DNA of 64,000 nucleotides, taken from assembly GCA_008632985.1 (NCBI GenBank), contig QPGO01000002.1:372001-436000 (forward strand), in the 5' to 3' direction. The stretch comes from Psammoneis japonica (taxonomy: Eukaryota). Made by a program: the position numbers and the translations under genes. Shown here piece by piece: positions 9,365-64,000 of the stretch; position 1 is the first letter of the stretch, and each line of letters opens with the position of its first letter. Below the pieces are notes generated by a model that made no database searches, had not been told where the DNA came from, and saw only the letters and a program-made list of their open reading frames with translations.

Positions 9365-9779
9365 ATGTGCAGCACTCCAGCCACAGCAGGTGGATGGTGC
9401 TCCTTGTGACATGGGCCAGAAGAGTTCTGTCTGCAGGCTCCACTGCAGAATGACTGAGCAATTGGTGCATTGATGATCACCAACAGAAAAAGAGGCAATT
9501 TTGCCAACACATGTCCTCCTCCACACTTGGAGGGCATCATTTCCAGTTTGCTTTGGCACATTCTTCAGACATCCAAGAATGCACCCAGCCTGTTTTTGCT
9601 TGCACAAATGAAGAAAATGGAAAGCCTTTGGCTTCACAAAACAGGGGGCATGAAACAATTTCACAGAAGATTGCACGCAGAAATGCATGTGCACAAGCAG
9701 CATGTGGGCTGGTGCAATCCAAGAAACTCTCATGTCACAATGCAGTGGTGCAAGGTTCCACCTGGAGCTGGAGCACATC
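9365..9779 (-). mobile_element. Non-autonomous (MITE-like) relative of the Sola-type element, heavily mutated
   Basis: Ends in ...ccacctggagctggagcacatc, a mutated reverse complement of the TIR gacgcgttccaggtctaggtgg. The interior aligns with 62150-62508 and 63550-63928. The left boundary is approximate. Confidence 0.7.
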
Positions 9780-10769: not shown

Positions 10770-11280
10770 GTGAAAGTTTGAGCAATGGCTGAAACTTGCA
10801 TTCCTGTTTGCTCAAACTTGGCAAGTTTGAGCAATTGGTCAAACTTGCAACATTTCTGACACTTCTGCAAGTTTGAGCAATTGCTCAAATGTGTGTCTGC
10901 AAAAACAACCACCATTGCAAGGAGTTGCAACGTGACACAACAACATGTTTTTGAGAATGAAGTGAAAACAATGTGATGCATTGTTTGAGAAATGAGTGTC
11001 GCCATTGTCTAGAATGGCCTCAAACACTGTGTTTCTGTTGCTCCAATTTAGTGCAGAAACCTGCGCAGCACTGTGCTGCAGCATCAGGGCAAATCCCACC
11101 TGAGTGACACATGTGCCTGCAGTTGTGCCTCATTGTGAGGCAGGGGAGTGCAGTGCTGACAAGTTCAGTTGGCAGGCTGACACTGTGTGGCAGTTTTGCA
11201 TCAGCACCCAACACTTTGGACTCGCAATGCATGTTTGAGCAATTGCTCAAAGATCCTGCATGTTTGAGCAATTGGAAGAC
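10770..11280. repeat. Cluster of palindromic tttgagcaattgctcaaa motifs, probably subterminal repeats of a small element
   Basis: Perfect 18-bp palindromes at 10872-10889 and 11234-11251, with variants near 10777, 10826 and 11263. Confidence 0.7.
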
Positions 11281-12418
11281 CCGATCTATTTGGAGGTGCT
11301 TGACAGCTGGACTGCACATCCACCACAATGCACAATCCACAGTGTGGGCCAATGCAGTCTCCTGGCTGTGTTGGCGAGGGCTGTCCATGAACAACATGGC
11401 CTGTTTTCATGGATTGTGCCTGCCACAAAGGAGCAACTTCTCTGCCAGTGACATGGGAGCAGAAGAACTGTTTGACACTTTGACACAGACATGACCCAAA
11501 AATGCACATGGAAAAAGGTCCAATCCCAACAGTTTGATGTCAAACTCACATGGACCACTGCTTGTTCCACAGTGGCAAAAGACTTTTCGTTGTTGTCTGG
11601 CGAAAGTCAGTGAGTGCACAGAAGTTGAGAAATGCACAGAAATGAGGATGGAAACAAACAGCAGTCAATGTGTGTGCCAGCGCCAGTGCCATGCTGCACT
11701 TGTGCATGAAGGATCATGGCCAAACATCATGGCAAACAGTGCAAAGTTTTGTCCGTTCTGCAGTGGAGTCATTGCATGAGATCTCACCCCCCTCAGAACT
11801 CACAAACATGTCGATGCTAAAACCAGCCACTGCACATTGTCACACATGTGAACTCTGATCACAACCCAGATTTTGCACAATCAACTCTTGCACCTCTGCA
11901 ACTTGTGAGACCTCCTCAACACCCACTCAGGAACACAGAGCTGCCATCTTTGTCACAGCCATGGTTGAGAAGCCAGCTTGTTTGCAGCAAGGATGCAGCC
12001 TGTTCTCAGCAAAATAGAAGCAAGAGCATGAGCTGCTTTGTCATGCATTGTGGTCGTGCAGCAGCACTTGTTGTGTTGTGTCAAATGCAGCTCAGCGAGA
12101 AAGCAGCATTTTGCGCATCTCCCACAACATGCACATGGCATCATCCAAGTGATTGATGTTGTGCGCACACCTGATTTGCGATTCATTTTCGTGAATCGCA
12201 AATGAGAGGGTTGTCAGCGCAAAAAAAAAGTTTGCAATCCACTGAAAAAATGTTTTTTTTTTTTTTTGAGTCTCATTCGCATCTTGGAGGACGCACAGAC
12301 ATGAGTTTTTGATGCATAGAAGGTCGGTGGATGCTGTACTCAGTACGAGTGTGACTACTAAAAATAAAAGTATCGCAACCATGAACTCGACCACGTTCAT
12401 TCTACAAACATTGTTTTT

Positions 12419-42779: not shown

Positions 42780-45700
42780 GCATCAAAGAAGCAACACGCA
42801 ACAAATGCCAGACCCTATACATGAATTGTTTCATGCAAATGTTTTTGACCCATCTTGCTGCCTGCTTTGTGAGAAGGGAGCGAGTCTTGCTTTTTGACAG
42901 CCAAAGAGAAGCTGGAGGGCGTCTGTGGGATGCGGCTCTCCTCTGCACAGTTTGAAGCTTTCCCCTTTTTAAGCTGGTCATGGCATCCACATTGCATGTG
43001 ATCTCCTGCCTGAGGGCTGTTGTGCCCCCATGTTGCAGTGCCAAACCATGTGATTGCCACAAGAAAGCAAAGCTTGCACCACAGCACCCATTGGCTGCGG
43101 GCACGACAGCTTCTTTGGAATTGTGTGCACACTGTGCATGTCAGAATTCCCATCACCGGCACACTGACTTTTGCAGAGTTGCTCTTGCAGCACCAGAAAC
43201 AGTCAGCAAAGTTGCTGGCAGAGCAAGTGAATTTGTTGCATTGCTGAGCCAGATGAAAAATGGACAAAACACAATGATCCCTCAACAACAGGGTGAAATT
43301 TGATGTCATCAGTGCTGTGTGGTGAAATGAGGACTTTTCACATTGGTCAGTTTCTGGAGAATCACTTGGCAGATTGATCAATCATGCCAGTTGCTCTCTG
43401 CACTGAGAGGAAAGAAGGCAAATCTGCAGCTCTCATTTGCAGAGATGTGATTTTGTGAGAGCATTGCAGCACCTTTTTGCAGCATGGCAGCACGCACATG
43501 AGCACAGATTTGGAGCACCTGGCAGTGTCAATTGGAGCACAAAGAGCATGTGCGCCTCTCTCCAAAAGCTGTGAAAACTGCAACAGCAGCAGGTGGTCGT
43601 GGTGGATCCTGTCAGGAGTCTGCAGTCCAGGAAGCTGGTGAGACAGATTGATGTGGAAACGGCGCTAAAGATGTTGCTGTGAACAGAGCTGTGGCCATGA
43701 GTGACAAGAAGAGCTCTTGATGCAATGCAAAACAGCACCTGCTGGAGCATGCTGCACATTCTTTTGGGAGATTTGTGACTTCACAAATCCAACCTCCAGA
43801 GGCACTGGAATGAGTTGTTCCAACATGGTTGTTTTGGAAACAACACTGCAGCTGTGGAAGAGAGTGGCACAGTGGTGGGCAGAGTTGCCTGGCCCAATGA
43901 CAATGGCCAGGTGGTGCAAACACCAGCTCAACAAAGACCTTCAAGAGCAAGAGCCAAGCAGGCTCAAGACAGGAGCACAAAAGAGTGGAACCAAGTTCCA
44001 GGGCTGTGCATCATGGAGGAACTGTGCAAGTTTTTCTGAACAACAAGGCTGGCGGCAAAGAGCAGCAGCAAGCTGCTGAGGCACTCATGAAAACAACCAA
44101 AGACGAGATCACCAACTGTGCAGGACAACATTTCAACTCAGGTGTCTGTGTGAAAGCTGTGGTTGGGCAACTTGAACAAGCAGGCTTCAACAAAGAAAAG
44201 CCTGCTTTGCCAGCTCCATCTTTTCCCATTGTCTGCATGCACTGTTTTCTGCCATGTCCAAACACACACAACCTCATTTTGCACTCACACAATTGAGCTT
44301 TGACAACAAATGTGTCCATTGGAGTGATGCACTTGTTTGCTGCAAAATGCCATGTGTTGTGGGTGCTGCACACCCTGCAGCTGGGTGTTTTGAGAAACTT
44401 GCTGCTGGGTTGCCAACATCTCCCAAGGGGCACACAAAATCATGTCATTTGTCAAAACCCATCCCAGTTGGATGTGTCAAGACTCAAGCATTGCTGCTCC
44501 ACTGCCAAACTGAGAATCCAGGTGATGCTCCTCTCACAGCTTTTGTCCAACAGAGAACATGCATTCCTCTGGAGCTTGGCTTGGCTTCACCAAGCAAGGC
44601 ATCAATCAGTGGCCAAACTGTGCACTGCTTTCATGATGCCATTCAACAAAGCAGCTCTCTCTTTCTCTCTCCTGCCAAAAAGCACCAGCTGAAAAACAGA
44701 AGCACTGGAACACCAAGGAGTGGAGGTGCTCTGCTCTGATGCCAACAATGATGCCAGCTGTGACAAACATCCATTTTTAGTCTCCTTGGCTGGCGGTGCA
44801 CATCAATTTTGATGAGCCCACAAGCACCATGAAATCTGTCACAGCAACAACTTGGTGGACAATGCATCCAGCAACATCTTGACAGATGTTGCTGGCTTTG
44901 ATCTTTCTCAATTGTGCCTGCCCCCCAGGGGTGTGGCACTGACTCTCTTTGCATTTTTGCTCGTGTGCCCTTCCTGCTGGCAGAGCATCTTTGAAAATGT
45001 GGGCGTCAACTTTTCATGACCCACAATGGCCTTTTTTGTGATTGCAGAGTTTCCCCCAAAAATCAGAAAAGTGCTGATTTGAGCAATTTTGCCAACTCAT
45101 CCCTTCCTCTGCCATGTTGAGCATGTAAAAGCCAGAGCCATTGTGCACTTGCCCAGTCAGAGGTTGCTCATGTGTTTTCTGAGCCTGCTGAACAGGGGAA
45201 TGTGGCCAGACAGCTGTGACAGAATGCTCTGTTGGAGATGCTCCAAGAAGTTCACAGCTGCAGAGTGCTGCACAGCTTGGTCTGCTGTGCCTGAGCTTTC
45301 AGCCAACAAAAAGCCCAGAAAAGCCTTGCTGTTGCCACACCATCTTTTGCTTGAGCTGGGCTGATGATGTTGAAGAACAATCAAGAGTTTTTTGCTCTAA
45401 GACAGTTGCATCAGGCTGTGAGTGCTGCACAGTGTTCTCCCAGTGAGCACCCTGACAACTCTGTTCTTTGAGTGGTGGGCATCTTGAAATGCACCGTTCT
45501 CCATGCTGGCACTGGTTTGGGGCACCCATGTTCTTTGCTGCAGAAACACAGAGAATGCTGGCTACAAATTGGTGCTGCAAGCAAAGATGGTCTCATGTAG
45601 AAAGCAGTTTGCTGCATGACAACAAATCACAGTTCATTCTCTTGAGCATGCTGCTTTGATGTGCTGGCAGAGATTTGTCTGATTGCCTGCCATCAGAACA

Positions 45701-48700
45701 ACAGCCTTGCTGGGGCTTCACTCATGACTGACCTGTTGAGTTGGCATTTGTGCAACATTGGCTCAAAGCCAATGTTGGGGATGCAAAAGTGCAGGATTGG
45801 GTCCAAAAATGGTTGTGGCAGCAGGAACCCCAGAGGGGAAGTCTGTCAGATTTGCTTGCACAAAACACGCATCATGGCAGTGCCTCTGTCTGGTGTGCCC
45901 AGCCTCAAAGCATCATCTGATGTGGCTCACAAGTTGGTGTGGTCACAGCTTTTGGACAACATGGATGCAGCCATGATCTTGGCAGCCTGCAATTTTTGGA
46001 ATGTGCTTGCAGTGTGCCGTGGCAACAACTTCGTTCTTGCACCACATCTGTGCAAAATCTGACTGTCTTTTGGTGTTCCAAAGAAGTCCAAAGCAAAGTC
46101 TGGGGCAGACATGATCCAACTCTGAGTGGGACCTTGCAGTGCTGTTGGCTGTGACAGAACATTTGTTGATCATGCACCACACAAACGTCAAGCACATTTC
46201 AGTGCACTTTCTTTTGCAAAAAACATTTCAAATGCTGCACGCCAGAAATGATGCACTTCAGGAATGGGCACTTGAAGTCAATCAAAAATTTTTTTTTTGT
46301 TGTTGGCAATCATTGACTTGTCAATTGCCTTCTGGTTGTGATGCAGAGCTTGCGTGCAGAATTCCACATGCCCAGCAGTCTCACATGGTGCCCCCCCATC
46401 CAGGGCCAGAGGAGTGCACATGGGAAAAAACCCACTGAACACCAGATTTGAAAGGGCTGTGCAAGTGATGGAAACTGCACTCACTCTCACATCATGTCAT
46501 GTCAGACCTGCAATTTTCTGCACTTTCTAGAGAGCATCTGGTGCCCTCAATGACCAGAGCAGTGCCTGCACTGCTGGCAAATGAATTGTTGTGATGTGCC
46601 CCAGTCTGCTTCATTCCATCTTGCAGTCTCCTTGTTGCTTGTGGCATGACACGCAACAGCCAAGCAGAGCATCAAAGAAAGTGCAACATGGGTGCCACCA
46701 CCAACAAGTGCAACAACCAACAGCTTGTTTGCAGTGTCATGCGTGTGGTCTGCATCAAACTTGTTGTTTGAAACAAAAAGTGAGCAATGCTTTTTTTTGC
46801 AGATTTTCACAAAGGCATCAATCAGTGTCCATGGTCAAATGTTTTGCTTGCCACAAAAGAGCCCAACTGTGTGCCACACCCTCCATGCATGCTCTTGGAT
46901 CACAGCCAAATTGCTGGCCATCTGGCCCCACATTTTCCAATCTAAAGAGTGCACTTTCAATGGGGCAGGTGCCGATTGTCTTGTTGGGATCTTGATGTGA
47001 GGTTGCACAAGAGACAGACAAACACCTCTCTGAGCAAGCTCTGGCAGCAGCTTGTCTGTGGTGTGCTTGCCTCCTGTGGTGTGGTGTGCCACACATGTCT
47101 CCTGTGTTGCAAAGCAAAGCATCACCTTGTTTTGCTTTGGCAAACACCTCACAGGGCATGACACAACAGGAGCAGTTGTCAAAGTTGTCTTCGTGCATCT
47201 CAGCTGACATTTTGCATCTGCTGTGAAACTCCTCTTCCTTGGCATCACAATCAAAATCAGGTTTTTTGCACACATGAGTTCCAGGACAAAGCCCCGCTGC
47301 TCCCATGGCTTGAGTTGTGTCTTGTGTGGCAATTGTGCCAGCATGCACTCTGGAACAATCAAGTCCAGACACTTGGCAGAAGATGAAGCTGAATGTCTGG
47401 ATGACATCCCTGCACCCTTTTTGCCAGTGACGACAGAGAAGGCAATGAGCAAGGCCTCAGGCCCTGCAAGTGAGTCAATCAAAGGCCACAAAGTCTCATG
47501 CTAAAAAATCTCCTTGAAAACTTGTCAAACAATCAGTTCTGTGTGTGGCAGCATGGCAATGTGGTGACAATTCTTCTCCAGAAGAATGCAGGCAGAACAT
47601 GCTCTTGAACTCATGGTCTTGTTGGAGAGAGGATGGATGGAGCAACTGCAGAGCCATGCACTCAAGCCAACTTGTGAGCTTCTTGTTGCAACATGTTTCC
47701 ATCTGCAATTTGGTTCTCTAACAGTTCGGTCATTGGCCTGCACAGTTGAAGACCGTTTTCACCTTGTTTCAAGTCATGAAGCTCCAAGGATGGCCCACAC
47801 ATGTGGCTGATGCAATGGACACTTCCACAGAGGAAAGGTGCAAAGACAAAAAGAAGACATGCAATGAGCAAGAAAAGAACCCCAACAAGAATTCTTCTTG
47901 TCATGCTGCAAGCAATGCTCGTGACAGCAGAAAAGCTTGCCAAAGTCAGCACTTGAGGAGTTTTGGCTTTCAACAGTTGCTGTGACAGTGCACGGTTTGC
48001 AGCTTGCACTTGCTGGTGCAGACCTTCCCATCAGTTGAGAGTCTCTGCATTCCATGGAAAACAAGAATCCCACAATGTTGTCACACCTGTGGGGACCCCA
48101 GCAAGTCTGTGCATTGCCCACAACTGATTTGGCTCTGTGACAGACATGCGGCAGTTTTTCCATCACAAAAACAGCAAATTGACCATGCAGATTGCTGACA
48201 CTGCAATGCTTTTTGTCACCACCTTTCCAGCTGCTTTTCAATGTGAATGGATGGACAGTGGTCTCATGATGAAGGCCCTGCAATGTGGCATCTTTTCGGA
48301 TGTTGTTCAGTCCAACATCTTGTTTGCCTTCTGTGATGTGTGCCTCAAATTTGGTTGCCCTTTGCACAGACAACAACTGTGCCAAGGGTTGCACTGCTGC
48401 ACTGTCACTTGGTTGTTGGACAAAGAACTCCAGCACAGCTGCTGTGAAGCACATGAGCCAAAAGAGTTTTGCTTCTGAGGATTGGGTGCTGAGCAAAATG
48501 AGAGAAGACAAGGAGGAAGACATGGCCATCATGGATTCCACACAGACACAGTCTCTGAAGCAGGCTGCAAGGACAAACTGCTGCTCCCAACACTTTTGGC
48601 ATTTTAGAAGTGCCATCTCAAAGCAACTGGAAATTTACAACTGGTGTTGATCATGGCAGAACTGTGGGCTCCAGTTGGAAATTTGGTCGACACTGATGTC

Positions 48701-49675
48701 TGTTGGATGATTTTGCAAATGAGCTCCAGCAGTCAAGCAGCAATGCCGTCACAGAGCAAATCAGGCAATCCTTGAAAACACAACCACAACATGACTGGCA
48801 TGTTGGGTTTTAGAAGAGTTTCTTGGGCAGCAATGACTGTCAATGCAAGATTCTAAGACACCAATTTTCAATGCTTTGTGGAGCATGATTGGAGTTGGAG
48901 AATCCGCAAAAACGCAACTCAACTGGCATGTTGGGTGGCCCTGTTTTACTGTGTGGGAGTTGCTCAAGCTGCAGCTGCTGTTTCAAGAAATCAAAGCAAT
49001 GTTTTGCTGAGCATTTCCATCAGAAAATGCCTGGAGCAAATTAAGAGTCACAGAAACAAAACCTGGAATCTAGAGTTGTGGCAAGAGTGCACTGTGTGCA
49101 CTGACAAATGGGGCTGCACACATCTCAGACAACAACATTTCAGACCCTCTCGCTTGTGGTTCTCTGATGGGTGGGCATTGTGGACATCTGAAAGGGGAGA
49201 TGGCTTGGCACTCTTTTTTTGTTCCTGGCACCTCTCACTGAACACATGTTTGCTTGACTCCACCAACCTGCAACACATCATTTGTGGTTGTTTTTCACAA
49301 TCAAAGCTTCCCTGTCAACAAAAAAATCACTGAGAAGACATGCCAGTTGCTCTGCTTTTTTGCCAGTTTTTTCTTCCACATTTGGATGCCATGATTGGAG
49401 GCATTTGGGGGGTGTCGCTGCTTGGCAGCAGCGATGCAAGGGCACAATTGCTGCGGCAATTTCTTCCACTGAACCTCGCCAACAGGAGCAGAACAAATGA
49501 CTCATTGAAAACAATCACCAGCAGAACAGCCAGAAAAATGTTGGCACACAACAAACTGAAAAATGGAAATTGTCGTGGTGACCAACACAGGATGTCACTC
49601 GAAAAAGTTGCTCCGTCAGATGGACGTGCAGAGGGGGGATCCCCCCCTTCGCTCGTCAACTTGTGAACACTGCAC
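42780..49675. mobile_element. Long degenerate TpA/CpG-depleted element (unclassified), host of nested insertions
   Basis: About 7 kb nearly free of TA and poor in CG. Continues after the insert at 55339. Confidence 0.6.
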
Positions 49676-50718
49676 TGTCAGCCCATCTGTCTGCATGTTG
49701 CATGATGGACAGACTGGATGCAGATGATGGCTGGACCATTTGGACAGACGAGCAGATCTCTCTGAGATCTGCTTCTCACTTTCTCATCTGCTGGTGCTCG
49801 TGTCATCACAGTCCTGGCACTTTGGGGAGTCTTTCACACCTCTGTCCTCCATTGCCTTCCGCATTCTGTCAGGTTGTGGCCTTGCGCTGTGCCACAGACC
49901 TCTGCGCCAAGCTTTCATTTCGATTCATTTGTTTTGTGAGCCGATCGAGCCAGCCTCATCGTCTGATCCGACAACTTTTTGTCTCGCTTTCCCGGCATTT
50001 TTCACGACCGTCCAGATTTCTACGCGTGTATGACCAAAAATGGCTCCACCGACGCGTTCCAGGTCTAGGTGGGACCTCGCACTGCTGAACTGTGACATCG
50101 ATAGTTTTTTGAATCTCGTCGTATGTCGCGCACGTAGAATTCTACGTGATTTTTTGAAATTTTGTGTCATTTTACGGTACACTTATCGAGCGATCCGTCC
50201 AAAAACTTTTGACATTTTTTGTTACAGCGCGATTCTATAATGTCTTAAGAATCGCGTAGGGCAGGTGCATTTGCAAAAACGTCGTGTGGTAAGAGGCATG
50301 CCGGCAATTGTACCACAAACTTGGCCGTTTATTTAATGTTGAAGATAAACATGTCCATTTTAATTAAATAAGACTGACTAAATAGAAAGGTCACCATTTG
50401 CCAATTTTGGGCCAAAAATTGAGTTTTTTGCTTTTGGCATTAGTGAAAACTAGAGCAAAAATGCTTTCAAACGATGTGTCGGTCATTTTGTGGGTCCGAT
50501 TTCTTGAAAAATGGCACCAATCTTGGGGTTTCCATGGGATCGCATGCCGGACGCGCGCACTCTTCAAAATGCGCGTAAATTGCACACCACGCACTTTGTC
50601 AGCCACGTAAGAAGCTGCTGTTGTTGCCGCTGGTACACTTTTGGCAGCCATTTTTATTTTTTTCAGAAAATAGAACAGCACACCATTTTCCCGCAGCAGC
50701 AACTGTCTTTCGTCCACA

Positions 50719-53019
50719 ATGGCAATGGACGACGACGATGCCGGCAACAACCGGTCTGACTCAGTTGGCAGCCTGTATGCAAAGCTCAGAGTCAAGCCTC
50801 ACCCTTCACGTGAGGATGCTCTTGAGATGTGCAAGGAATTTCTTCAAAATGCATTTGACAGCCCGAAGTGTGTGGATGTTCGGGGGCGGCCAACGAGGTG
50901 CGAATGTTTGCATGCTTTTCGGACGCGGACAGAGTGGCTTCCCTGCATTGCAAAGTTCATGTTGGATGAGGTGGCATGCAAGAGCAGAGACGACAGGGAG
51001 AGCCACATCCTGCAACAATGTCGGTCATGCCAGTCCACGAAATTTCTTCCCGTTCCAGCTGCGGGCAAGCCACCGGGCTCCGACGTGTTGACATGCAAAA
51101 ATGCTTTCAAGCACATTGTGAATGTACGTCAAAAAGCTGACAGAAGGGTGAAAGAGGCGATTCAATCAAACATGGCAACGTCGCATGGCAACAAGGGCAA
51201 ACCATCAAATGCAAGAATGAAGGCAGACGTGGAAACGTCGTTGCACGTTTTTTTCAAAGACATGATGGAACTTGCTTCTCCTCGAGCCACAAGGTTTGTT
51301 CGACTAGAAGTCGGGGTGGGGACCAGGGATGATGATGAGGAGCTGCTGGAGCTCCCAACCCATTGGACGGCTCGCCGACTGTGCGGCAAATGGGTTGGCG
51401 AACGAGGATGGAAAGCCAAGCTCAAGAATGACAAAGGGGCGATTGAATTGACACAAGCAGCAGAAGACGTGGAGCTGCAAAAGACAGTTGTTTTTGAAAC
51501 TTTCCGTTCTTTCTGGAAGAGAAGCTGCCCAAAGCCAGTTCTTCCTAAAGCTGGGGAGGACATTTGTTCTGACTGCTTTGTGCTGTCGCATGCTTTTCGT
51601 TGCTTCTCGTCGCCTCGTCCTTTGAACAGCAGTGACACTCCAGTGAATGGACATCCAAGGAGAGAGGAGGCAGTGGCAAAAGCTCAAATCCACATCCAAC
51701 AGGCTGTTGCTCAGAGAGAACTGTTCAATTCTCTCACTGCCGAATGCCTTGAACAGGAACTCATTGACGTGCTTGTTGGCGACTGTTCCGAAAACATGGA
51801 CCTTCCACACCTTGGCAATGAGCAATCAGGTGACACTTGCTGCTTTTCTCCATTGAATGTAAATTGTTTTGGACTTGTCAACATGAAAGACAACTTGCTC
51901 CAAGCATGCGTGTGCCACGAGGGCCAAGGTAAAAAAGGAGGCAACAACGTCGCATCACTCATTGTGAAGCATCTAAAGGACAAAGGGTGTTTGGAGGTTG
52001 ATGATGATGGAACAGCAAAGCAAATTCGAGCAAAGCTTGCTGTTGTCATGGACAACTGCTCGGGTCAGAACAAGAACAGGATGGTTCTTCGGCTGGCCCT
52101 CTACTTGGTTGAGCGGGGATTCTGTCAAACCGTGCAGTTTGTGTTTCTTGCAGTCGGGCACACAAAGAACCCTTGCGACCGGATGTGTGACATCTTGTAA
52201 AAGCCACACAGAGACTCCAATGTCTATGCCTTCAAGCAAATGATGGAATTGTTGAATGAAAACGAGAATGCTGCCGCCACCGCTGTGGACGAGGAAGACT
52301 TCCAAGACTGGGATAAGAAACTCGATTCATTGCATCGACGCTTCGCCCCCAGCACCGTCCACAAGAGCCACATCTTTTCTGCAACAAAAGCCTCGCCAAC
52401 TGACATGAAAATTCAGGTGTCTTGCCGGGAGGAGGATCAAGGTGAGACTGCCACAAGAGAATTCAAAAAGCCTGGGACCAACAGCAACAGAATGGAGCTC
52501 TTGCAGGCGGCACCCCAGGTCATTCCATTTCCTGGAATTCCCGACATTAAACAAATAGAGCTTGGGACAAAATGGAGGAAGCATGTTCCAGTGGAGCATC
52601 AGGATGAGATTTGCCCCATGCCACCACAAGCAATGATCGACAGACACAACAAGTCAAAAGCAGACAAGGCCAAAAGGAGCAAAAAGACTGTTTCCAATTC
52701 GAGATCAAGACAATCTCCCACTGCCGCTGCTGCTGCTGCATCCACTCAACCCCCAGCTGTTCCTGCCACTCAACCACATTTTACAGCCCAGCAACCTGCA
52801 GCACCAGCTGCTGCTGCCGCCCCGCCGCCGCCGCATTTCGTCAACCCGAATTTCGTCAACCCGCATGGTCTACAACAACAAATGCTTCCGATTGCGGCAT
52901 TGCATCCAACTGCAGCTGCTGAAGTGCAACAGCACATGCAAACCCTTCACTCCACTCTTAACTGTTCTACTATTGAGGAAATTTTGGCGCGTCCACATGG
53001 TCCCTGCTGGCACGGTTGA
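50719..53019 (+). pseudogene. Sola-type transposase, one in-frame stop (52198-52200), Tyr-depleted
   Basis: EDICSDC, LPHLGNEQSGDT..FSPL, HEGQGKKGGNNVASL, DNCSGQNKN and GHTKNPCDR. The ORF at 52240-53019 is in the same frame. Confidence 0.85.
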
Positions 53020-53047
53020 TTGGTTGGAGCGATCACGTCGGCGGCAC

Positions 53048-53550
53048 TGTCCATCTGAACAGAGTGTATGACAACAAAAATTTTAGACGATACCAAAAAG
53101 AAACACAACCATCATACTCGATACATTCATATTACCTTATATCCATGATGTTAATCATGTGACATTGACCCAGTGATGGTCGCTTTGTTAATACGGAGCA
53201 TGGCCGAGTCGCGTGGAAACCACACAAAATCATCCAAACAGAGTGTGGCAACAAGAATTTTAGACGACATCAAAAAACAAACACAACCATCATACTCGTC
53301 ACATTCATATTGAGTTATGTCCAAGCTCTGTATCATGTGATATTGTTCCAGTGAGGGTCGATTCATGAATGTGGCCGAGTCGCAGAGAAACCACAAACAT
53401 GCTGTCCATCTAAACAGAGTGTTGCAACAAGAATTTTAGATGACACCAAAAAACAAACACCACCAGCATACTCGACAGATTCGTATTACCTTATGTCAAT
53501 GCTTTTAACCGTGTGATATTGTCCCAGTGACGGTCGCTTTTTATGAACAC
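53048..53550. repeat. Three tandem units of about 170-180 bp in the right arm of the transposon
   Basis: aacagagtgt..caacaa.aattttaga.ga..caaaaa..aacac..c..catactcg occurs three times. Confidence 0.85.
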
Positions 53551-56079
53551 AGCGGCGTCTCCATGGTGCTGCTGCGGTTTGCGGTGCGCGTGATGGTTTT
53601 TTGCTTTTTTCTCAAAAGTAACCATCACGTCTGTCTGTTTTCCATGGTTTCCTTTTTATTTAGTCAGTCTTAAATTCTCGTACTACGGAGCTCGCACGTA
53701 GAATTCTACGGGCCCAATGTCACACGGAGTCCCACCCAGGGCTGGAACGCGTCCACCAACTAAAACCATGGCGTCTTCCGACCCCACAAAGCCCGCTCTT
53801 CCGTCCATCACAGAGATCCACTGTGAATTCGAGGCACACACAACGATGCCACATCTGCATGACTGCCTGAATGCAATTCATGCAGACTCCACAACTGATC
53901 TTGACCCGTTCTTTGACGATCCAGAGCATGCGCAACCCAAGAAAGATTTCGTGGACATGCTTCGTGATTGCTTCATCAACGAAGCGTTTCCACCCCACAC
54001 AGCTGATCCTGCGGATGTACAGTCAATCAAGACAATTGTGGATCAAGCCCCGTTCTGACTCATTGACTCTCAAAGACCTCGTCCAGTCCGTTTGACGACT
54101 CCGATCTTGTCAAAGATGATCAAGACGAATCTCCAGAACAATGAGCAATCTCTGTTCATTCTCATCTCCACCCAACGTGTGTGTGTTGATCCGGACATGA
54201 CATGGAACTGTTGCAGTTGGAACAAATTCTCTCTTGCACCCTGACAGCAGAAACAGCAGCCTCCGTCTCCTTCTCAGAAAGCTGCAGGACCTGCTGCATT
54301 GACTGTGAATGACTCAGTCAATGTGCTCAATGCACACGCGTCGAGTCACGCTCCGCCTTCTACAGCTTCTGCCAAGCCATCTGGAAGTGCTGCATCTTCT
54401 GTGACATCAAAACACCTCTTCAATCCGAACACACTGCCCAAAGATGTTCGTGCACGCTGCGACCGCAAAGAAGACGGAAAAGCCACTCTTCGGAGCTCTC
54501 TCGTCCCTTGTGACCATGGATTCCGTCACTGTGTTGATGCATCCGATCGCATCATCCTTGACGATGGCACCCTTTTCATCATGAGCTCGACTCCTGACCA
54601 GAAAATGTTGTTCAGGGAACCTCCTGCATGTCATGACGACTCTCCCCCTGGGGTGCGAGCATGGCACCAAAATTTCCAATGTCATGCCTTTGATTCAGGA
54701 TGCCACATGCATCCATTGTGGTGTTTTGCTGAGGACCACGGTGGTGAGAAGGGTTTCGAGATCAGAAACGGCAAGGATGATGACTTGCCTCAACGCATGT
54801 GCATCCACTGCAAGGAAGCTCAGAGCTCTCTCCACAAAATCCCATCCAAGTCGGACATGTTCCCCAAGAACAGCAAACATCATCGGATTGTTGCATCATG
54901 CTGCGGCAATGGATGCAAGGCTCTCAAGCAGATTGTCTGCGAGAATCATCCTGCTTTCGACCACGATGCTGCTGGGCTGGTTGACTCCCATCCTGTCCAA
55001 GGCAATCGATCATTGACGGACTGCCACATGATCTTCAATGATTTCCTGCAGCTGCGCGCCTGCATTTTTGATGCGGACTCTACATTGAATGATCCACGAG
55101 AGATGACCATCTTTGTCAAGAACACCAAGTGCTCCAAGTTCTCATCTCATGCCACCAGAGATGAACGGAAGTCTCCAGCTGTGCAGAAGAAGTGCGCGGA
55201 TGCACAGATTGTCGAGACTCTCTCTGATTTCCTCCGCCAACCGGGTGGCCCATCCCTTGCCACTCGTGCGATGCAATCCAATCCCCGCCATAAATGGAGT
55301 CGAGCAGCTGAGGATGCGCGACCTTTGGAATTCTGTCATGCACTGCAAAATTGAAATCAGCACAATCCATGACCGCCCTTGGAATTTTTTCTTTGCAGTG
55401 TCGTCTTTTCATTGTCAAGGCATCAGATCAACAACAACAATTTACAGCACTGGCCAAGTTTGAGTGCACCTCATGTCATGTGTTGAATTTTTGGAGCTGT
55501 GTTTGACCCAATTCATGCATGCTTGAAAAATCGATGGAAGATAAAAGTTGTCAAGCATCAATCACCAACACATCACAACATTGTTGCGAACTTGCGCACA
55601 AGATTGATTTTCTGTTGTGCCCATTGAGACAACCAAACATGATGATGACTTTGGTTCATGACATGCACGAACTAAAATTTTAGTTCAATTTTTGAAAAAT
55701 TGGAAAAAAATTCACAGGAATGTTGTGAGATGTGTTGTTGGTTTAGCACTGAAGCATGGAAATGCACAACAGGAAGCAACAGCAGTTGCTTTCCTTCCCA
55801 TTTGCTTTTTTTCATTTGAGTCACTCACAACTTCGTTGACTCTCCTGTCTCGACATCATCTCTGAAGCATGAAGCTCTCATCTCTTTGCATGGGACAAAC
55901 CGCGCGGCAGTTGTGTGATGTTTCATTTGCCGCCTCGACAAGAGGTGGCAGTCCCATGAGGATTGGGAAGGCCAGAGGCAATTTTGTAACAAGGTTGCGG
56001 GTGACCATGGCACAAGAAAGGGAAGGATGAAGTCTTTTTTGGTGTTCACTGTGCACAGCTGCATGCTGTGGACTGACAA

Positions 56080-56805
56080 ACAGTGCTGCATGCATCCAGC
56101 TGCAGTTGCCCCAGCTCAGACAACATTTCAGACCCTCTCGCTTGTTGTTCTCTGATGGGTGGGCATTGCGGACATCAGAAAGGGGAGACAGCTTGGCACT
56201 CTTTTTTTTTTGTTTCTCCGGCACCTCACACTGAACACATGTTTGCTTGACTCCGCCAACCTGCAAGACATCGTTTGTGGTTGTTTTTTACAATAAAAAC
56301 TTCCCTGTCAACAAAAAATCACTGAAGATGTGCCAGTTGCTCTGCTTCTTTTTGCCAGTTTTTTCTTCCATTTGGGTGCTGTGATTGGAAGCATTTGGGT
56401 GTTGTCGCTGCTTGGCAGCAGTGATGTTGAGGCACAATTGCCATGGTCGAAAAACACTTTCTGCCGGCCGGCAATTTTTTCCCACCAAACCTCACCAACA
56501 GGAGCAGAACAACGATTCATTGAAAACAATCACCAGCAGAACAGCCAGAACAAGGTTGGCATGCAACAAACTGAAATGGAATTTATCGTGGTGACCAACA
56601 TGAGATCTCACTCGAAAAAGTTGCTCCATCAGATGGACGTGCAGGGGGGATCCCCCTTCGCTCGTTAACTTGTGAACACTGCACTGTAAAATTGAAATCA
56701 ACACAATCCATGACCGCCCTTAGAATTTTCTTTTTAGTGCCTTCTTAATTAAGGAGTCAGATCAACAAAAACAATTTTTTATTGTCAAGTTTGAGTACAC
56801 CTTAC
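56080..56805 (+). repeat. Second, uninterrupted copy of 49090-49675 plus 55339-55470
   Basis: Shared ctcagacaac..catttcagaccctctcgcttgt...gaaaaagttgctcc.tcagatggacgtgca...gtgaacactgcactg and aaattgaaatca.cacaatccatgaccgccctt. Confidence 0.88.
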
Positions 56806-56940
56806 ATCGACTACTACCCTAGTCGTAGTAAAGGCAAGGGAGGCTCGAAGAGCAGCAAGAGCACGAAGAGCACCAAGAGCGGCTCAAAAGGCAAAGGTGG
56901 CGATGGCCCTAGCAATGGCAATGGCAATGGCCACCTTTAA
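56803..56940 (+). pseudogene. C-terminal fragment of a Lys/Ser/Gly-rich (silaffin/cingulin-like) protein
   Basis: Translates as YIDYYPSRSKGKGGSKSSKSTKSTKSGSKGKGGDGPSNGNGNGHL*, directly abutting the island edge, with no start seen. Confidence 0.55.
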
Positions 56941-58967: not shown

Positions 58968-59347
58968 AACTCATAACGCATTGATGGTTTGCACAGCTGG
59001 TCTCGTTTGCGGAGTTTGAAGTTGGAGAGTGGAGCGGTGAGCGCAATGCTAACGGAGCTCGAAATAGCTCGTATGGTCGATTTTGAGGTACTACCGTATG
59101 AATACGGATCGAAAGCTCTTGATCTCAGCTTTTCAGCGATGTATGTATCAATAGCTGGCAATGCTTCCATGACATTTTTTTAGCCTTAAACTAAATTAAC
59201 GGCTTTAACAGTTTACTATGAGTTTTTTGACCGTTGAGATAATGCGCGAAATAACATGCCAAGACAGTCACGTGACTGTCAAGCATGTACAAAATTACAC
59301 AAACTATTTTAAGCGCTCAAACAGGGTTCGAATTTGAAAAACTCTTG

Positions 59348-61688
59348 ATGGTGGCAACAAGAGCAAAGCAAAGCAGAGTCACAAAAAAATGGCGCGGCCG
59401 AAACCAACCAAAGACGTCAAGGGCGATGAGGCCGCAGAAAAGTTCTGCGATTGGCTTTCCAACCCTGCAGAGTCTCCCATTTTCCACGAGTGCTGCACCC
59501 AAGCAACTGCAAAGAACCTGCGAAATGTCAGTGTCTGCAGAAGCCAAGAGCAGTGTTGGAGAACAACGACAGCTCCTTCGTGAAAATGCTGAGCAACTGC
59601 CTCGTGCACTTTGAAAGACTGGGGTGCACAGAAACACATGCCACTTTTGCATCCTAGATTGAACATTCTGCTTTTGTTCAGAAGCATGCGTGCAAGGGTG
59701 GTTGTCGCTGCTTTGTTTTGCCGCTGTTGAAAGCTGACGCTGACGACGACGAGGAGGAGGAGGGGACACCACCAGATGATCATCTGGTCTGCTGCAGTGC
59801 CCTCCTTGCATTGCTGGGCAAAGGGAGAAAGTTCTGGAGAACTGCCAAGTTGAGTGCAAAGAGCAACGTCTTTCCGAAACACGATCTCAAAGGGAAGACT
59901 GGGCAGAACGCGAACAAGACGCTTGCACCCGAAATGCACACAGTGCTTCGCGCATGTTTTGATGACACAAAGGAACTTTCTGAACCACGCACAACGAGAC
60001 TGGTCAGAGAAGAGACAGGTGTTGGCTTGAGAGATGAAGACACGCACGCACATGACTCACCTCCCACCATGAAAAAGCATGGATCATGCAAACGACACGG
60101 ACAAGAAAATGGCTGGACCCTCAAATCGAACCACAAAGGAAAGTTTCTCAAGGCGGAACCAATTGAAGGAGAAGAGCAGCAACCAATGTGCTCCTGGGCA
60201 CAATTTTGCAAGTTCTGGAAAAAGAGCTGTCCTGAAATTGTCGTGAGAAGGCCCACTCGTGACATCTGCAACGAATGCTGCAAGTTCGCAAATGGCTTCA
60301 GGATGAAAGTGATGAAAGAAAAGACGGGGGGTGAGAGCAATGACGATGACAACAAGGAGGAAAGCAATGATGATGAAGAAGATGGAGCAGATGCAGAGGT
60401 GAGAATGAAAGAGATCGAAGAACAGGAAAATGAAATGTTGCACGCTGCAAAGCACGTCGAGTGGGCTCGAAAGCAATGGACACTTGTGCAACAGTGTGTT
60501 TCGGAAGCAACAGAACACGTGAAAGCCAACAAGGCACACGGCAAGCGAACTCATGCAAGGATTGGTTGCTGTTGTCAAAATGGCGGGCTTCCACATTTTG
60601 GGGCGGATCAGCCAGGGGAGATGCGCTGCTTCTCTCCTTTGACGATCAACATGTTTGGGGTTGCCGATCCTTCGGGGAAAAAAGTTGTGACAGTGACGGA
60701 AGATGAGTTCAAGGATTTTTTGCATGCGTGCATCTGCCATGAGGGCACTGGACAAAAGGGAGGTGACAATGTTGCTTCCCTTGTGATGAAGCACTCACAT
60801 GATGGTGGATTGTTGGATGTCAGGAAGGGTCCAGGCGGAAAGCTTGCATTGATTTTTGACAACTGCATCAGGCAAAACAAAAACAACACGGCATTGAGAC
60901 TTGCTTCACACCTGGTGGAACAAGGACATTTTAAAGAAGTGAGCATTGTTTTTTTGACAAAAGGGCACACCAAGAATGCCTGTGACAGGCTCTTCAAAAG
61001 CCTCAAGCAAACTCACCATGACAAGAACATCGGCATGTTCCGCAAACTCTTGACAGATTTGGACACCTCCGAATGTGTTCAGGTCGTTGAAGTGAAGGAG
61101 GAGGATTTTGTGGGGTGTGGAGCGCACTTTGACCAACATTGCAAGAAGCACAGCACAGCTGCAAAGTGCCACTGCTTTGAAGTGACAGATTCTTCGGAAC
61201 CTGCGGCAGCAACAATGAAAGCAGCAGATGGCGAGCCTGAAGTTAGCAAGGATCTCAAGAAGTGGAAGACAGAATCAATCGAGCAACGAAAACAGAAGTT
61301 GCAAATGTCACAACCACATGCCTTGACACCTCCAGGTGTCAAGGACACAAAGAAGGTCAAGCTTTGTGCCAAGTGTTGGCCGCTTCTTGATGAGGCAGAC
61401 CAAGACGAGATGTGCCCTCATCCTGGAGACGACATCCTCAATTGCATTGCAAAAAGCAAGAGAGAGAAGCAGAAGAACAAGCAGGTGGAGAGCACTGAGC
61501 AGATGGTGCGAAATGAGAAAAAGAAAACTGCCAAAGCCAGCGCAATTCTTTTGGAGAGGGGCACAAATAAAAATCAACAGCAGTCCTTGTGCACACACAA
61601 ACTTTGTGCAATGTTTTGTGTTTGCACTTGCATCACATCACATCACTCAAAAATCTTGCAAGTGCCATTTTCTCAAAACAAATTTTGA
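59348..61688 (+). pseudogene. Second, divergent Sola-type transposase (decayed; no Tyr in the 656-aa frame)
   Basis: RDICNEC, LPHFGADQPGE..FSPL, HEGTGQKGGDNVASL, DNCIRQNKN and GHTKNACDRLF. The N-terminus is frameshifted and TIRs were not identified. Confidence 0.85.
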
Positions 61689-62149
61689 GAGCTTGAGAGC
61701 ACGCGTCAGCACCTTTTCATGTGGCCAGTCTCATGTGAACATGTCTCAACGCATCATTGTGATGATGTTCAATGTCATCAAACACCACAACCACCTGCAT
61801 CCCACAGTGGCACCATTGCCTGCAGTGCTGCACCAATGGCTGCTCTGATGCAGCCACTCTAGCCACTCTAGAGAACTCAGGGGTGTGTCAGTCCTGGCAA
61901 AAGTGGTGCCAGAGGGCAGCATGCGAGCATGTTGTCAAAGCCAAAAAAAACAGCAACATTTGGCAAACTCATTTTTGAGTGGTCAGGAAAATGGAGGACA
62001 AGGAGCGAGGGAAGTTTGCGAAGCCAAGAACTCCTCCAGTGCAAGCACGAGAAGTTTGCAGTGCATCAGGGACCCCGCACAAGAAAGTTTGGGCTCCCCA
62101 AGGTGTGAAAAAGCAAGAAGTTTGCAAAGAACGTGTTTGTGCCCCCCTG

Positions 62150-62508
62150 GGGCGCCAGTGTGACCTCAGGCAGGACTCTGTGCAGCATGTGCGGGCCCGC
62201 AGAATTTTGTGTGCCAGCTCTGCAACAAAGTTGTTGAGCAACAAACATGTGAGATGATTGACAACAGAAAAAGCAAGGCACAACTTTGCAGGCACATCTC
62301 CTCCTGTGCCTGTGTGTGTTCTTTTGCACACCCAACCCACTTTTTTTTGTGCAGATGAAGAAAATGGAGAGCCTTTGGCTTCACAAGACAGGGTGCATGA
62401 AACAATTGGGTGCACAAAAAATGTGTGTGTGCAGCATGTGGCACGATCCAAAAAATCTCATGCCACACTCCAGCACCAGCGCTGGGCCTCACCTGGAGCT
62501 GGGGTGGG
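62150..62508 (-). mobile_element. MITE-like relative of the Sola-type element
   Basis: gggcccgcagaattttgtgtgccagctc and cacctggagctgg match the two element ends in reverse. The interior aligns with 9480-9770. Boundaries are approximate. Confidence 0.7.
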
Positions 62509-63549
62509 AGAAAGGCCCCGGCATGTGAGAATGGTGCCATGTGGAGCCAAATGTTGTGCCACAGAATCAGCAGCAATGACATGCATGTGCTCTTAAAATT
62601 GTGTCAAAGCAAGAGTGACTTGTGCCACTCACTTGTTGTCTGCACAGCTTGACATGCCAAAAAAACAATGACATGGATTGACTCATCTTGTTGACTTTGC
62701 ATTGCATTTTGCACAATCTGGGTCATCCACCACAATCTTGGTGCTCAAATTGAAGGTGTGAAACTTTTGCTGGTGCTGTGTGTGCTTTGTTTTCACCTCA
62801 GTTGTGTGTGTCAAACAATTGTGCCCCTTTGTGCATGACACATGTCACAGGCTGCTGTGAGCAAGTCAAATTTGCAGACAGACATGCAGAGACTGTGGAG
62901 CAACATGCAAGCCAAGAAGCAGCAGCCAACATGGCTCTGTTTGACAAAAACAGATGACCCCCAATGCAGAGGGGTGTGAAAAGCACAAGTGCAAGCATCT
63001 GGGTTGTGAGCTGCTCTCATGTGGTGGCGTGAGCTGAAAAGGTGGTGAGGAAAGAGGAAAAACTTTGGCCCCTGTTGACTCATGTGGCAGCTGTTGACAG
63101 TTTTTTGGAGCTTGGCAGCCATTGCTGGTGCAAGCCTGTGTGTGGAAGTGAGACAGTGTGGTGCTGCAGCAAGAGCCAGCTGGCACATTTAAACAGCCAG
63201 CTCAAAGATGATTGTTCCATGTCATGCCGGCACAGATGCAGAGCTGCACAACATTGTTGAAGAACAGAACAGAGCCCAAATTCAAGCTTGTCTTGCATCT
63301 TCTTGTTCAAGATTCAACGACTGGCAAAAAAATTCTTTTTCAATGAACTGATGTTCAAACGTTGTTTTGATTTTTTGTCAGTGAGGCACGTGCTTGTGTC
63401 ATGCAGGGTCCCCATCTTTTTGGCAAAAAAAAGTGTGTGGAATTTGATGAGGAGCAATTCTGGCAAAAATGCATGCCATCAATTGTCGTTGTCGTTTGTG
63501 TGGTGTGGCACTTTTGTTGGTGTGGTTGTGTCCTCCCTTGTCTGACACA

Positions 63550-63928
63550 GATGCACTCCAGCTCCAGCAGGTGGGACCTTGCACCACTGAACTGTGACAT
63601 CAAGAGGTTTTTGAATTGCGCTGCATGTTGTTTTTGAATTGCGCTGCATGTTGCACATGCAGATGGCTGCATGTGACATTCTACAAAATTGTTTCATGCT
63701 CCCTGTTTTGCAAAACCAAAGGCTTTCTGTCAAGAATGAAAGTGCACTGGGGGCACACTCTTTGATGTCTGCTTGAGTGTGAAGGAGGAGATGCATTTGC
63801 AAAATTGCTTCTTTTTCTGTTGGCGATCATTCACATTTTCATTGCTTGACAAATTCAGCGTGGAGCTTGCACACAGAATTCTGCGGGCCCAATGTCACAC
63901 GGAGCCCTGCTTGGGGCTGGAACCCATC
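63550..63928 (+). mobile_element. MITE-like relative of the Sola-type element with 4-bp TSD (CACA)
   Basis: Starts gatgcactccag and ends ctggaacccatc. caca at 63546-63549 and 63929-63932. Confidence 0.8.
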
Positions 63929-64000
63929 CACACCTCACAATGTGCTGGCCAGGTGTGTGCAGAATTGCCGGCTGCCATTTGTGCTGGCTGTTGCCAATGT

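Follow-up and report, generated by a model that had tools for sequence, protein, structure and literature searches.

Why do two copies of one 43-bp sequence, both within the 64-kb window (the whole stretch of DNA analysed here), differ only where the first copy has TA or CG? An earlier note had quoted the pair, counted four differences, all of them TA or CG losses in the second copy, and proposed that the first copy is ancestral. The letters were as quoted and the count was confirmed. The four differences are transitions only (53693 C/T, 53698 G/A, 53699 T/C and 53708 A/G), and the dinucleotides at these sites read CG, CG, TA and TA in copy 1 and TG, CA, CA and TG in copy 2. Copy 2 lies inside an island that is almost devoid of TA and CG and enriched in CA and TG; the composition around copy 1 is normal. 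As set out below, four independent lines (conserved tyrosine columns in outgroup proteins, composition, other copies of the family and the lack of a RIP signature) agree at the sequence level and support the proposal that copy 1 is ancestral-like and that copy 2 was derived from it by loss of TA and CG. The coordinates of all features are collected in the table.

Table. Features of the 64-kb window
Feature	Position	Strand	Remarks
43-mer copy 1	53687..53729	+	Subterminal part of the right end of element A; unmutated state, 4 CG, 2 TA
43-mer copy 2	63862..63904	+	Same part of MITE-like copy Y; mutated state, 2 CG, 0 TA
Palindrome CGTAGAATTCTACG, right-side copy in A	53697..53710	.	Contains three of the four differing sites
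Palindrome CGTAGAATTCTACG, left-side copy in A	50133..50146	.	
Element A, autonomous-type DNA transposon	50051..53753	+	12-bp TIR, 4-bp TSD, DUF7869 ORF
Reading frame A, DUF7869 (DDE-transposase-like)	50674..53019	+	One in-frame TAA at 52198-52200
Tandem repeat, 176 bp, 2.8 copies, inside A	53045..53536	+	TA/CG normal although contiguous with the TA-poor ORF
Reading frame B, second DUF7869 protein	59658..61688	+	34% identical to A; open but mutated
Copy Y, 379-bp MITE-like derivative of the A family	63550..63928	+	TSD CACA at 63546-63549 and 63929-63932
Copy X, MITE-like, in another island	9399..9779	-	TA o/e 0.0, CG o/e 0.04
Copy Z, partial, MITE-like, inverted relative to Y	62164..62407	-	Inside island
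Second-pair repeat copy	56120..56805	+	Spans island edge: TA-free to 56583, TA kept from 56584
Partner of 56120-56687	49132..49678	+	Fully TA-free; differs by 6 adjacent CA/TG doublets
Partner of 56680-56802	55339..55471	+	CA/TG at 4 sites where the 566xx copy has TA
Small island	4349..5459	.	TA 0-1 per 500 bp
Island holding X	7960..12316	.	TA o/e 0.03, CG 0.13
TA/CG-depleted island, left part (A inserted in it)	43001..50020	.	
Island, continuation right of A	53762..56583	.	TA nearly absent, CG about half retained
Island holding B, Z and Y	59311..64000	.	Continues past the window end

The 43-mer as part of a transposon family

Judged by its sequence surroundings, the 43-mer is the right-end subterminal segment of a high-copy DNA-transposon/MITE family with cut-and-paste features. 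The element that carries copy 1, here called A, is bounded by a perfect TIR of 12 bp (GACGCGTTCCAG at 50051-50062 and the complement at 53742-53753), has the 4-bp TSD CACC (50047-50050 and 53754-53757), and was inserted into a TA/CG-depleted island, parts of which lie on both sides of it. Contigs from other copies diverged exactly at the termini (22 contigs at 50051 and 29 at 53753), and the flank agreement at these loose ends was 0.36, which indicates many copies with unrelated flanks. Read-derived contigs also revealed a short, internally deleted form with a joint from 50359 to 53670 (depth 779). The summed word depth at the A termini was 33,000-115,000 versus ≈ 60 in single-copy bins, a measure that is not a copy number; 5,451 contigs of read run X1 matched to the whole 15-kb stretch. 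Exact-pattern scans, with two patterns in metagenome_contigs and one in viral_contigs, detected no outside copies. Element A is young, that is, recently inserted. Copy Y, in which both CG are decayed in each TIR, is an old MITE-like copy.

The palindrome within the 43-mer does have a second copy, as the note had stated; it comprises 14 nt, and the interval given previously (50131-50148) adds two flanking bases per side. Taken as a 17-mer, the palindrome occurs exactly twice in the window, compared with 0.05 matches expected (≤ 3 mismatches).

Comparison of the A ends with Y over 143 clearly homologous positions revealed a strong asymmetry. Of 17 sites with TA or CG, 3 were retained, compared with 90 of 123 sites with other dinucleotides (Fisher p = 1.5e-5), and 12 TA or CG of A were CA or TG in Y, with no site in the reverse state (binomial p = 5e-4). 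Eight CG of A read TG or CA in Y, the change expected of 5-methylcytosine (5mC) decay. Y differs from A at ≈ 13% of other positions, yet 14 of the 17 TA/CG are gone, and we estimate that TA/CG was lost at least ≈ 10-fold more readily than other sites. When five alignments of the A ends with three island copies were considered, TA was kept at 0/19 and CG at 6/38 sites (the five share A and are not independent), and none of the island copies had a TA or CG that was absent from A.

A second repeat pair that had been brought forward as agreeing with the first is also real (56652-56805 versus 49643-49678 and 55339-55471): TA of the 566xx copy is replaced by CA or TG in the partner at four sites, and the reverse occurs at none. 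Parallel decay was visible as adjacent CA/TG doublets, with 6 in the 49132/56120 pair and 7 in Y/X versus 0-4 in controls; in the read contigs, other copies differ from the window's A at seven doublets of this kind (ORF and 3' region). In control repeats outside the islands, TA and CG were retained at about the rate of other dinucleotides, and TA/CG versus CA/TG differences were symmetric (8 vs 11, 6 vs 13, 27 vs 27, 3 vs 2 and 6 vs 5).

The states of the four 43-mer sites in other copies were taken from two loose-end consensuses and from joints, the four sites being absent among the 40 listed of 917 differing places in the read comparison. At site 1 (53693), CG is kept in other family copies (the two read-derived loose-end consensuses). 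At site 2 (53698), read-derived contigs of other copies have CG in one group and TG in another, and Y has CA; since TG and CA are each one step from CG, this fits CG as the ancestor. Every other lineage seen has CA at site 53699 (four in all: X, Y, Z and a consensus derived from reads). Independent decay at 53699 should yield a mixture of CA and TG, and the uniform CA counts against the main explanation.

At the TA sites 53699 and 53708, polarity is drawn from the general process and from the state of the two A ends, so a subfamily difference is possible there. In that case, a functional palindrome would exist in two paired forms, CGTAG...CTACG for the A subfamily and CGCAG...CTGCG for the Y/Z subfamily, which separated before any purge, and decay would account only for the two CG differences. 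Consistent with this, both arms changed symmetrically in Y and Z, where the palindrome is kept, the consensus with CA at 53699 represents 12 contigs, and the presence of the motif at both A ends suggests a putative binding site. However, all other TAs of the A ends were also lost in Y, X and Z, so the palindrome TAs need no special cause, and two independent losses have an about even chance of a symmetric outcome. We consider a subfamily difference unlikely.

Direction of change and composition of the islands

Independently of the 43-mer pair, the direction of change is fixed by conserved tyrosine columns in the predicted DUF7869 proteins. Reading frame A encodes 782 residues (Tyr 0.4%, TA o/e 0.13) and reading frame B encodes 676 residues (no Tyr, TA o/e 0.02), whereas Tyr makes up 3.8% of the residues of homologues (minimum 1.2%). 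At seven conserved Tyr columns, 120 outside homologues had 732 Tyr, 3 Cys and 4 His in 829 residues. The same columns contain 5 Cys and 2 His in A and 4 Cys, 2 His and 1 other residue in B; thus, A and B together have no Tyr and 13/14 Cys or His (TGY/CAY). Since Tyr is conserved in the homologues and replaced by Cys or His in A and B, TA to TG/CA is the real direction in this genome. Neither protein is likely to be a transposase with an intact catalytic core: both match DUF7869 but lack the conserved Tyr, and A has an in-frame stop. A literature search for DUF7869 returned no papers, and an Atlas search gave a weak link between the family and DDE_Tnp_ISAZ013, which was present in one cluster in 11% of its members.

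The opposite polarity, with CA/TG as the ancestral state and TA and CG gained in the A lineage, for instance by RIP-type C-to-T change at CpA, would agree with the sharing of CA/TG states by three in-window copies (X, Y and Z) versus one element. It conflicts with the Tyr columns. Moreover, the A lineage would have needed opposite base changes to acquire CG (from TG/CA) and TA (from CA/TG), the CA/TG doublets between copies require a TA or CG ancestor, and CG is present at sites 1 and 2 in other read-derived groups. The note itself had named RIP-type gain of TA as the outcome that would speak against it; the A ends have neither a TA excess (o/e ≈ 0.6, the genome's normal value) nor a loss, let alone a collapse, of GC. 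We regard the opposite polarity as close to refuted.

We then compared composition across the window. Normal (host-gene) regions (39.7 kb) have TA o/e 0.57, CG 0.99, CA/TG 1.20 and GC 0.473. The corresponding values are 0.07, 0.53, 1.60 and 0.495 in partial islands (8 kb) and 0.03, 0.14, 1.93 and 0.477 in full islands (13 kb). By simple arithmetic on these values, the frequency of CA+TG increases by ≈ 0.091, which matches the ≈ 0.085 lost from TA+CG. GC rises in the partial islands and then returns in the full islands, which fits a loss of TA before CG. AT, AA/TT and GA/TC are little changed in the islands, as expected if A-to-G and T-to-C changes occur at TpA only. Within the islands, TG and CA counts are even in windows of 250 and 500 bp (sd of z = 0.9), as expected of a process that affects both strands; the presence of both Cys and His in place of Tyr fits this as well. 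The islands coincide with DUF7869 elements, MITE copies and other repeats, and all Pfam-annotated host genes lie in normal regions. A Pfam search of 16 island frames gave no domain at E ≤ 0.001; one weak DUF3474 match was below its cut-off. Island edges are sharp, both at the 500-bp scale and at single TA positions. At the level of sequence, these comparisons show what the signature is and which way it runs, and that it is restricted to islands, affects the two strands equally and removes TA before CG.

A coding-strand bias at the Tyr columns (14 Cys versus 6 His) had brought up transcription-coupled deamination, an idea that was abandoned because neither the two ORFs nor any of the islands has an imbalance of TG and CA.

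Could the islands instead be very old junk, shaped by a genome-wide neutral bias against TA and CG, with selection maintaining these dinucleotides elsewhere? TA is low even in normal regions, and the islands contain degraded repeats without recognisable domains, both of which would agree with such a bias. However, non-coding repeats in normal regions that are 10-30% diverged retain TA and CG like other dinucleotides and differ symmetrically, whereas Y has lost most of its TA/CG at a modest divergence of other positions. In addition, one of the sharp edges falls within a single repeat copy (at ≈ 56584), and the A ORF is TA-poor while its equally old flanks are not. Neutral bias without targeting is therefore very unlikely.

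Modified bases can mislead long-read base callers, and base modifications of heterochromatin might thus have produced systematic TA/CG miscalls in sequencing or assembly. Against this, k-mer contigs of run X1 (depth ≈ 60) reproduce the island: one contig covers 61531-63518 with one other letter and one gap in 1987 nt, and a second has no differences in 531 nt, with the qualification that X1 may be the assembly's own source data and hence not an independent confirmation. Strand-wise miscalls would produce a mixed consensus that included new CG rather than a clean conversion, and the same site is CA or TG in different copies. We give an artefact hardly any credence.

A proposed region-targeted purge

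Together, these results make it quite probable that copy 1 is the intact end of a recent autonomous element and that copy 2 is the same end after a region-targeted purge by two processes acting on transposon islands. The basis throughout is the standing sequence of one 64-kb window, in which no mutation was seen happening. The first process would be fast and specific for TpA, converting TA into TG or CA by A-to-G change on either strand; its most likely chemistry would be enzymatic deamination of an adenine preceded by T, as proposed for Bigelowiella natans. The second would be a slower decay of CpG into TpG or CpA, as expected from deamination of 5-methylcytosine in methylated transposons. 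Both would act on transposon islands and not on host-gene regions, and together they would turn essentially all TA and CG into CA and TG, leaving GC unchanged and inactivating transposase genes. Replacement of Tyr by Cys or His creates no new stop codons, so the dead genes stay open. From this pattern we infer the enzymes, the choice of target and a role as defence. No deaminase or methyltransferase is encoded within the 64-kb window. Diatom transposons are described as CpG-methylated by DNMT5a (PMC9998398).

Element A itself sets a constraint on the trigger. Its TA and CG contents are normal at the ends, and the ends and the 176-bp repeats, of about the same depth, are untouched; only the interior (≈ 50452 to 52958) is mutated and TA-poor. 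This is predicted by neither a simple repeat-triggered nor a simple regional model. Because the unmutated termini are the most highly repeated part, copy number alone is not the trigger.

More tentatively, we suggest that diatoms too may possess a dedicated TpA-erasing defence, a DNA adenine-deaminase-type system that recognises mobile DNA, has a chemistry opposite to that of RIP and works with, or is the same machinery as, CpG erasure; it would kill transposases by Tyr-to-Cys/His changes while frames remain open. If true, this would be a second, distant lineage with TpA-erasing hypermutation, so far described once, in a 2026 preprint, and would point to a general defence of marine algae against mobile DNA, here directed at ordinary DNA transposons, and not to a trait of a single species. 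Were it common to Stramenopiles and Rhizaria, the system would be ancient and SAR-wide. Diatoms are transformable, so candidate deaminases and RID-like DNMT4 genes would be directly testable. There are also consequences for annotation: mutated transposons will be missed by similarity searches, and purged islands, being without TAA and TAG stops, are rich, on both strands, in long open frames that do not represent genes.

Comparison with known systems

The pattern looks like a targeted mutation defence against mobile DNA, otherwise reported in one alga only. RIP of ascomycete fungi converts CpA into TpA, so that TA is gained, GC is lowered and stop codons are created. The islands share with RIP irreversible, context-dependent dinucleotide transitions in mobile DNA, compositional islands and the inactivation of transposases. 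Unlike in RIP, TA is destroyed here, stops are not created and GC is unchanged (0.477-0.495 in islands vs 0.473). RIP is triggered by sequence duplication; here the most repeated segment, the A termini, is free of mutation, and the ORF, of lower copy number, is mutated, a difference that might be reconciled with a duplication trigger by a length threshold.

Decay of CpG through 5mC shares with our data the change of CG to TG or CA, its restriction to silenced repeats and a slower course than the loss of TA. It accounts for only half of the signature, however, and should lower GC, an effect for which the change of TA to TG/CA compensates here. The substrates of ADAR-type A-to-I hyperediting, which prefers a 5' U, and of APOBEC editing of retroelements are RNA or retroelement intermediates. 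The likeness lies in A-to-G change after a preceding T/U, with repeats as the target; unlike in these systems, the targets here are cut-and-paste DNA transposons, and non-coding MITEs are equally affected.

A literature search for TpA/CpG purging of transposons, in diatoms or elsewhere, found only the preprint on B. natans, which describes TpA-only hypermutation of integrated giant-virus and virophage DNA (Mettrop et al., bioRxiv 10.64898/2026.01.13.699255, 2026). According to that preprint, de novo mutations in the integrated viruses were almost all A-to-G or T-to-C and all at TpA, they arose in cell lines at a rate ≈ 1000-fold above background, and TpA-poor, CpA+TpG-rich clusters were enriched in transposon domains (10.64898/2026.01.13.699255). 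As far as the preprint describes it, the likeness is close: TA changes to TG or CA on both strands, the change is confined to foreign or mobile DNA, its long-term trace is poor in TpA and rich in CpA+TpG, and it looks episodic rather than constitutive. The B. natans process was measured directly in mutation-accumulation lines, whereas ours was deduced from sequence. Its host is a chlorarachniophyte (Rhizaria), whereas the window analysed here is diatom-like, with diatoms as the only named relatives of a host gene. CpG has no mention in the main text of the preprint, whereas CpG is purged here as well, more slowly than TpA. Finally, the targets are DNA transposons and MITEs here and integrated viruses in B. 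natans, and the depletion of TA is far more complete here (o/e 0.03, compared with the Rho of 0.45 given for the B. natans viral region).

The 43-bp pair and the purged islands

The two 43-bp repeats at 53687-53729 (copy 1) and 63862-63904 (copy 2) show one transposon end in two states, before and after a purge of TA and CG. The observation of the earlier note is confirmed: the 43-mers match the sequences quoted there and differ at four positions, all of them transitions. The perfect palindrome CGTAGAATTCTACG is present at 53697-53710 and a second time at 50133-50146, and self-comparison of the window with repeat-pair counts showed that the second repeat pair singled out in that note is also real.

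The four differences are part of a regional pattern and no local curiosity. A 500-bp map and lists of TA and CG positions revealed sharply bounded islands, nearly devoid of TA, depleted in CG and enriched in CA/TG. By our arithmetic on the regional values, the dinucleotide share of CA + TG was up ≈ 0.091 and that of TA + CG down ≈ 0.085; the islands thus resemble normal sequence after conversion of its TA and CG to CA/TG. The balance of TG versus CA (sd of z = 0.9 in islands versus 1.45-1.67 in gene regions) indicates that both strands were equally affected. GC content rose in partly purged islands and returned in full ones, and no 500-bp bin of the window combined depleted CG with normal TA. 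This indicates that a rapid loss of TA came first and was followed by a slower loss of CG. The island edge at 56584 lies inside one repeat copy (56120-56805), TA-free on its left and with TA kept on its right; hence, the purge does not track repeat boundaries.

Features of the window and composition of its regions (o/e, observed/expected)
Feature	Position or extent	Particulars
43-mer difference	53693	C/T; CG in copy 1, TG in copy 2
43-mer difference	53698	G/A; CG in copy 1, CA in copy 2
43-mer difference	53699	T/C; TA in copy 1, CA in copy 2
43-mer difference	53708	A/G; TA in copy 1, TG in copy 2
Island	~4349-5459	
Island	~7960-12316	
Island	~43001-56583	broken by element A
Island	~59311 to window end	
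Normal regions	39.7 kb	TA o/e 0.57, CG 0.99, CA/TG 1.20, GC 0.473
Islands, TA gone, CG partly kept	8 kb	TA o/e 0.07, CG 0.53, CA/TG 1.60, GC 0.495
Fully purged islands	13 kb	TA o/e 0.03, CG 0.14, CA/TG 1.93, GC 0.477
Element A	50051-53753	perfect 12-bp terminal inverted repeat GACGCGTTCCAG and its complement; 4-bp target-site duplication CACC
Element A reading frame	782 codons	DUF7869 domain; one in-frame TAA
Copy Y	63550-63928	379-bp short form, two ends joined; flanks CACA
Copy X	9399-9779, minus strand	short copy of A family
Copy Z	62164-62407, minus strand	short copy of A family
Frame B	59658-61688	second DUF7869 frame, 34% identical to A
Open frame	20809-24267	1152 codons, no Pfam match; ~1.1-kb internal repeats, 21238-22653 vs 22351-23751, 78-81% identical
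Inverted repeat	3-633 / 24060-24816	21 kb apart, ~84% identical, normal-composition DNA
100-bp tandem repeat	24373-24572	97% identical; adjoins second arm of inverted repeat

In repeats lying wholly in normal regions, TA/CG-versus-CA/TG differences were symmetric (8 versus 11, 6 versus 13, 27 versus 27, 3 versus 2 and 6 versus 5), and retention of TA and CG was close to that of the other dinucleotides, also where divergence reached 10-30%. The purge thus belongs to the islands and is no genome-wide bias. Miscalled bases are an unlikely explanation: at a depth of ~60, k-mer contigs from public run X1, possibly the source of the assembly itself, matched the island with one other letter and one gap in 1987 nt, and with no differences over 531 nt of island sequence.

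Both strands of the islands carry long, overlapping open frames (e.g. 59379-60056, 59780-60550 and 60084-60794 (minus strand), within 59317-62457), and TAA and TAG are nearly absent from 59317-62457 and the other islands. It follows from the genetic code that no stop codon can arise through the TA process, which also eliminates TAA and TAG; this explains the long frames on both strands. These frames are thus a trap for gene prediction.

A transposon family and the direction of change

Window self-comparison and a five-way alignment placed the 43-mer in a DNA-transposon family, copy 1 lying in the right end of element A and copy 2 within copy Y. X1 contigs placed on 49001-64000 departed just before 50051 (n = 22) and just behind 53753 (n = 29), with a flank agreement of only 0.36, confirming the ends of A. 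A joint 50359 -> 53670 at depth 779 corresponds to the short form. Summed word depth was 33,000-115,000 at the termini versus ~60 in single-copy bins; this sum is not a copy number, but it shows that the family is very abundant.

The earlier note had taken copy 1 as the state before, and copy 2 as the state after, TA/CG loss. This polarity is supported by outside DUF7869 homologues and by one-way changes from A to Y. Among the best 120 of 252 homologues of frame B, the Tyr share was 3.8% (minimum 1.2%), compared with 0.4% in A and 0 of 676 residues in B, and Cys and His were about doubled in A and B. In the seven columns with Tyr in at least 60% of these 120 homologues, they carried 732 Tyr, 3 Cys and 4 His among 829 residues; A carried 5 Cys and 2 His, and B 4 Cys, 2 His and one other residue. 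Codons at these columns in the window frames were TGY and CAY; the codon reading was based on those 52 of the first 60 homologues that have 600 residues or more. TA thus became TG or CA rather than having been gained. Of the seven Cys/His carried by the homologues, five came from a single protein, P0043 (1.2% Tyr; it covers 6 conserved Tyr columns and has Cys/His at 5), possibly a purged copy that stems from a different genome, sample or source.

At the 143 positions where homology of the A ends with Y is secure, TA + CG was kept at 3/17 and other dinucleotides at 90/123 (Fisher p = 1.5e-5). Twelve sites had TA/CG in A but CA/TG in Y, and no site had the opposite pattern (binomial p = 5e-4). 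In five alignments of the A ends with Y, X and Z, which share A and are not independent, TA was kept at 0/19 and CG at 6/38, and the island copies had no TA or CG that A lacks.

X1 short-form copies read ...GAGCTCGCACG (10 contigs, agreement 0.74) and another X1 group ...GAGCTCGCATGCAGAA (12 contigs, agreement 0.87). CG was kept in both groups at 53693. At 53698 the state was CG, TG or CA depending on lineage, which fits a CG ancestor. The TA sites 53699 and 53708 may instead reflect a subfamily variant of the palindrome, as every non-A lineage seen has CA at 53699. Adjacent CA-versus-TG doublets require that the ancestor had TA or CG and that the copies decayed independently of each other; there were six in 49132/56120, seven in Y/X and 0-4 in controls, with seven more between A (ORF and 3' region) and other copies in X1 contigs.

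Uneven purge within element A

Element A was inserted in an island. TA and CG are at normal levels in its ends (50021-50451 and 52959-53761), whereas the interior (50452-52958, approximately the reading frame) has lost ~85% of TA, in one young copy. The 176-bp tandem repeats adjoining the ORF have similar read depth, yet show no purge. Models in which repeats trigger the targeting, or in which targeting is purely regional, do not predict such an interior-only purge. In X1 contigs, most TA losses in the ORF were common to other copies and few were private, which suggests that purging overlapped in time with the copying of the family. A copy damaged at its ends would be immobile, which could keep the ends of A intact. 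Alternatively, RNA-guided targeting of the transcribed part could be responsible.

Host and mechanism

The Pfam-annotated host genes (two kinases, ankyrin protein, transportin-3, WS/DGAT, SET protein and two sugar-nucleotide dehydrogenases) all lie within normal regions. Transportin-3 (minus strand, 31564-34687) comprises two overlapping frames, 31564-33585 and 33419-34687, perhaps because of a short intron or frameshift; every other host gene in the window is a single frame. A UDP-glucose/GDP-mannose dehydrogenase-family gene is tandemly duplicated (27634-29673 and 30033-32088, 97% identical over 2 kb), its close relatives being UDP-N-acetyl-D-glucosamine dehydrogenase according to JGI. In the SET-domain gene region (57126-58967), X2 contigs from the sample of X1 had 16 other letters in 1479 nt and others differed at 45-55 letters in ~330 nt, suggesting a second haplotype, strain or paralogue.

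Named best hits of transportin-3 were diatoms only (Bacillariaceae sp., Cylindrotheca, Seminavis, Nitzschia, Phaeodactylum, Pseudo-nitzschia and others; 42-49% identity), and an outside search with the sugar dehydrogenase gave no match above 83% identity. The host is thus diatom-like and not the published Bigelowiella natans strain.

CG loss in the islands fits deamination of 5-methylcytosine. Diatom transposons are reported to be CpG-methylated by DNMT5a, and RID-related DNMT4 genes, described there as of unknown function, to occur in many diatoms (PMC9998398). For TA purging, our literature search found no precedent beyond a 2026 B. natans preprint (bioRxiv 10.64898/2026.01.13.699255); the purge in this diatom-like genome is a kind of phenomenon reported once before. 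That preprint reports de novo mutations in integrated viral DNA that are almost all A-to-G or T-to-C, all at TpA, at ~6e-7 per site per generation and confined to some lines. It also reports TpA-poor, CpA + TpG-rich clusters enriched in transposon domains, and proposes an ADAT2-like adenine deaminase. Deamination of adenine after T is most likely the chemistry of TA loss here too, and the TA part of the purge in the window matches the TpA hypermutation reported for B. natans.
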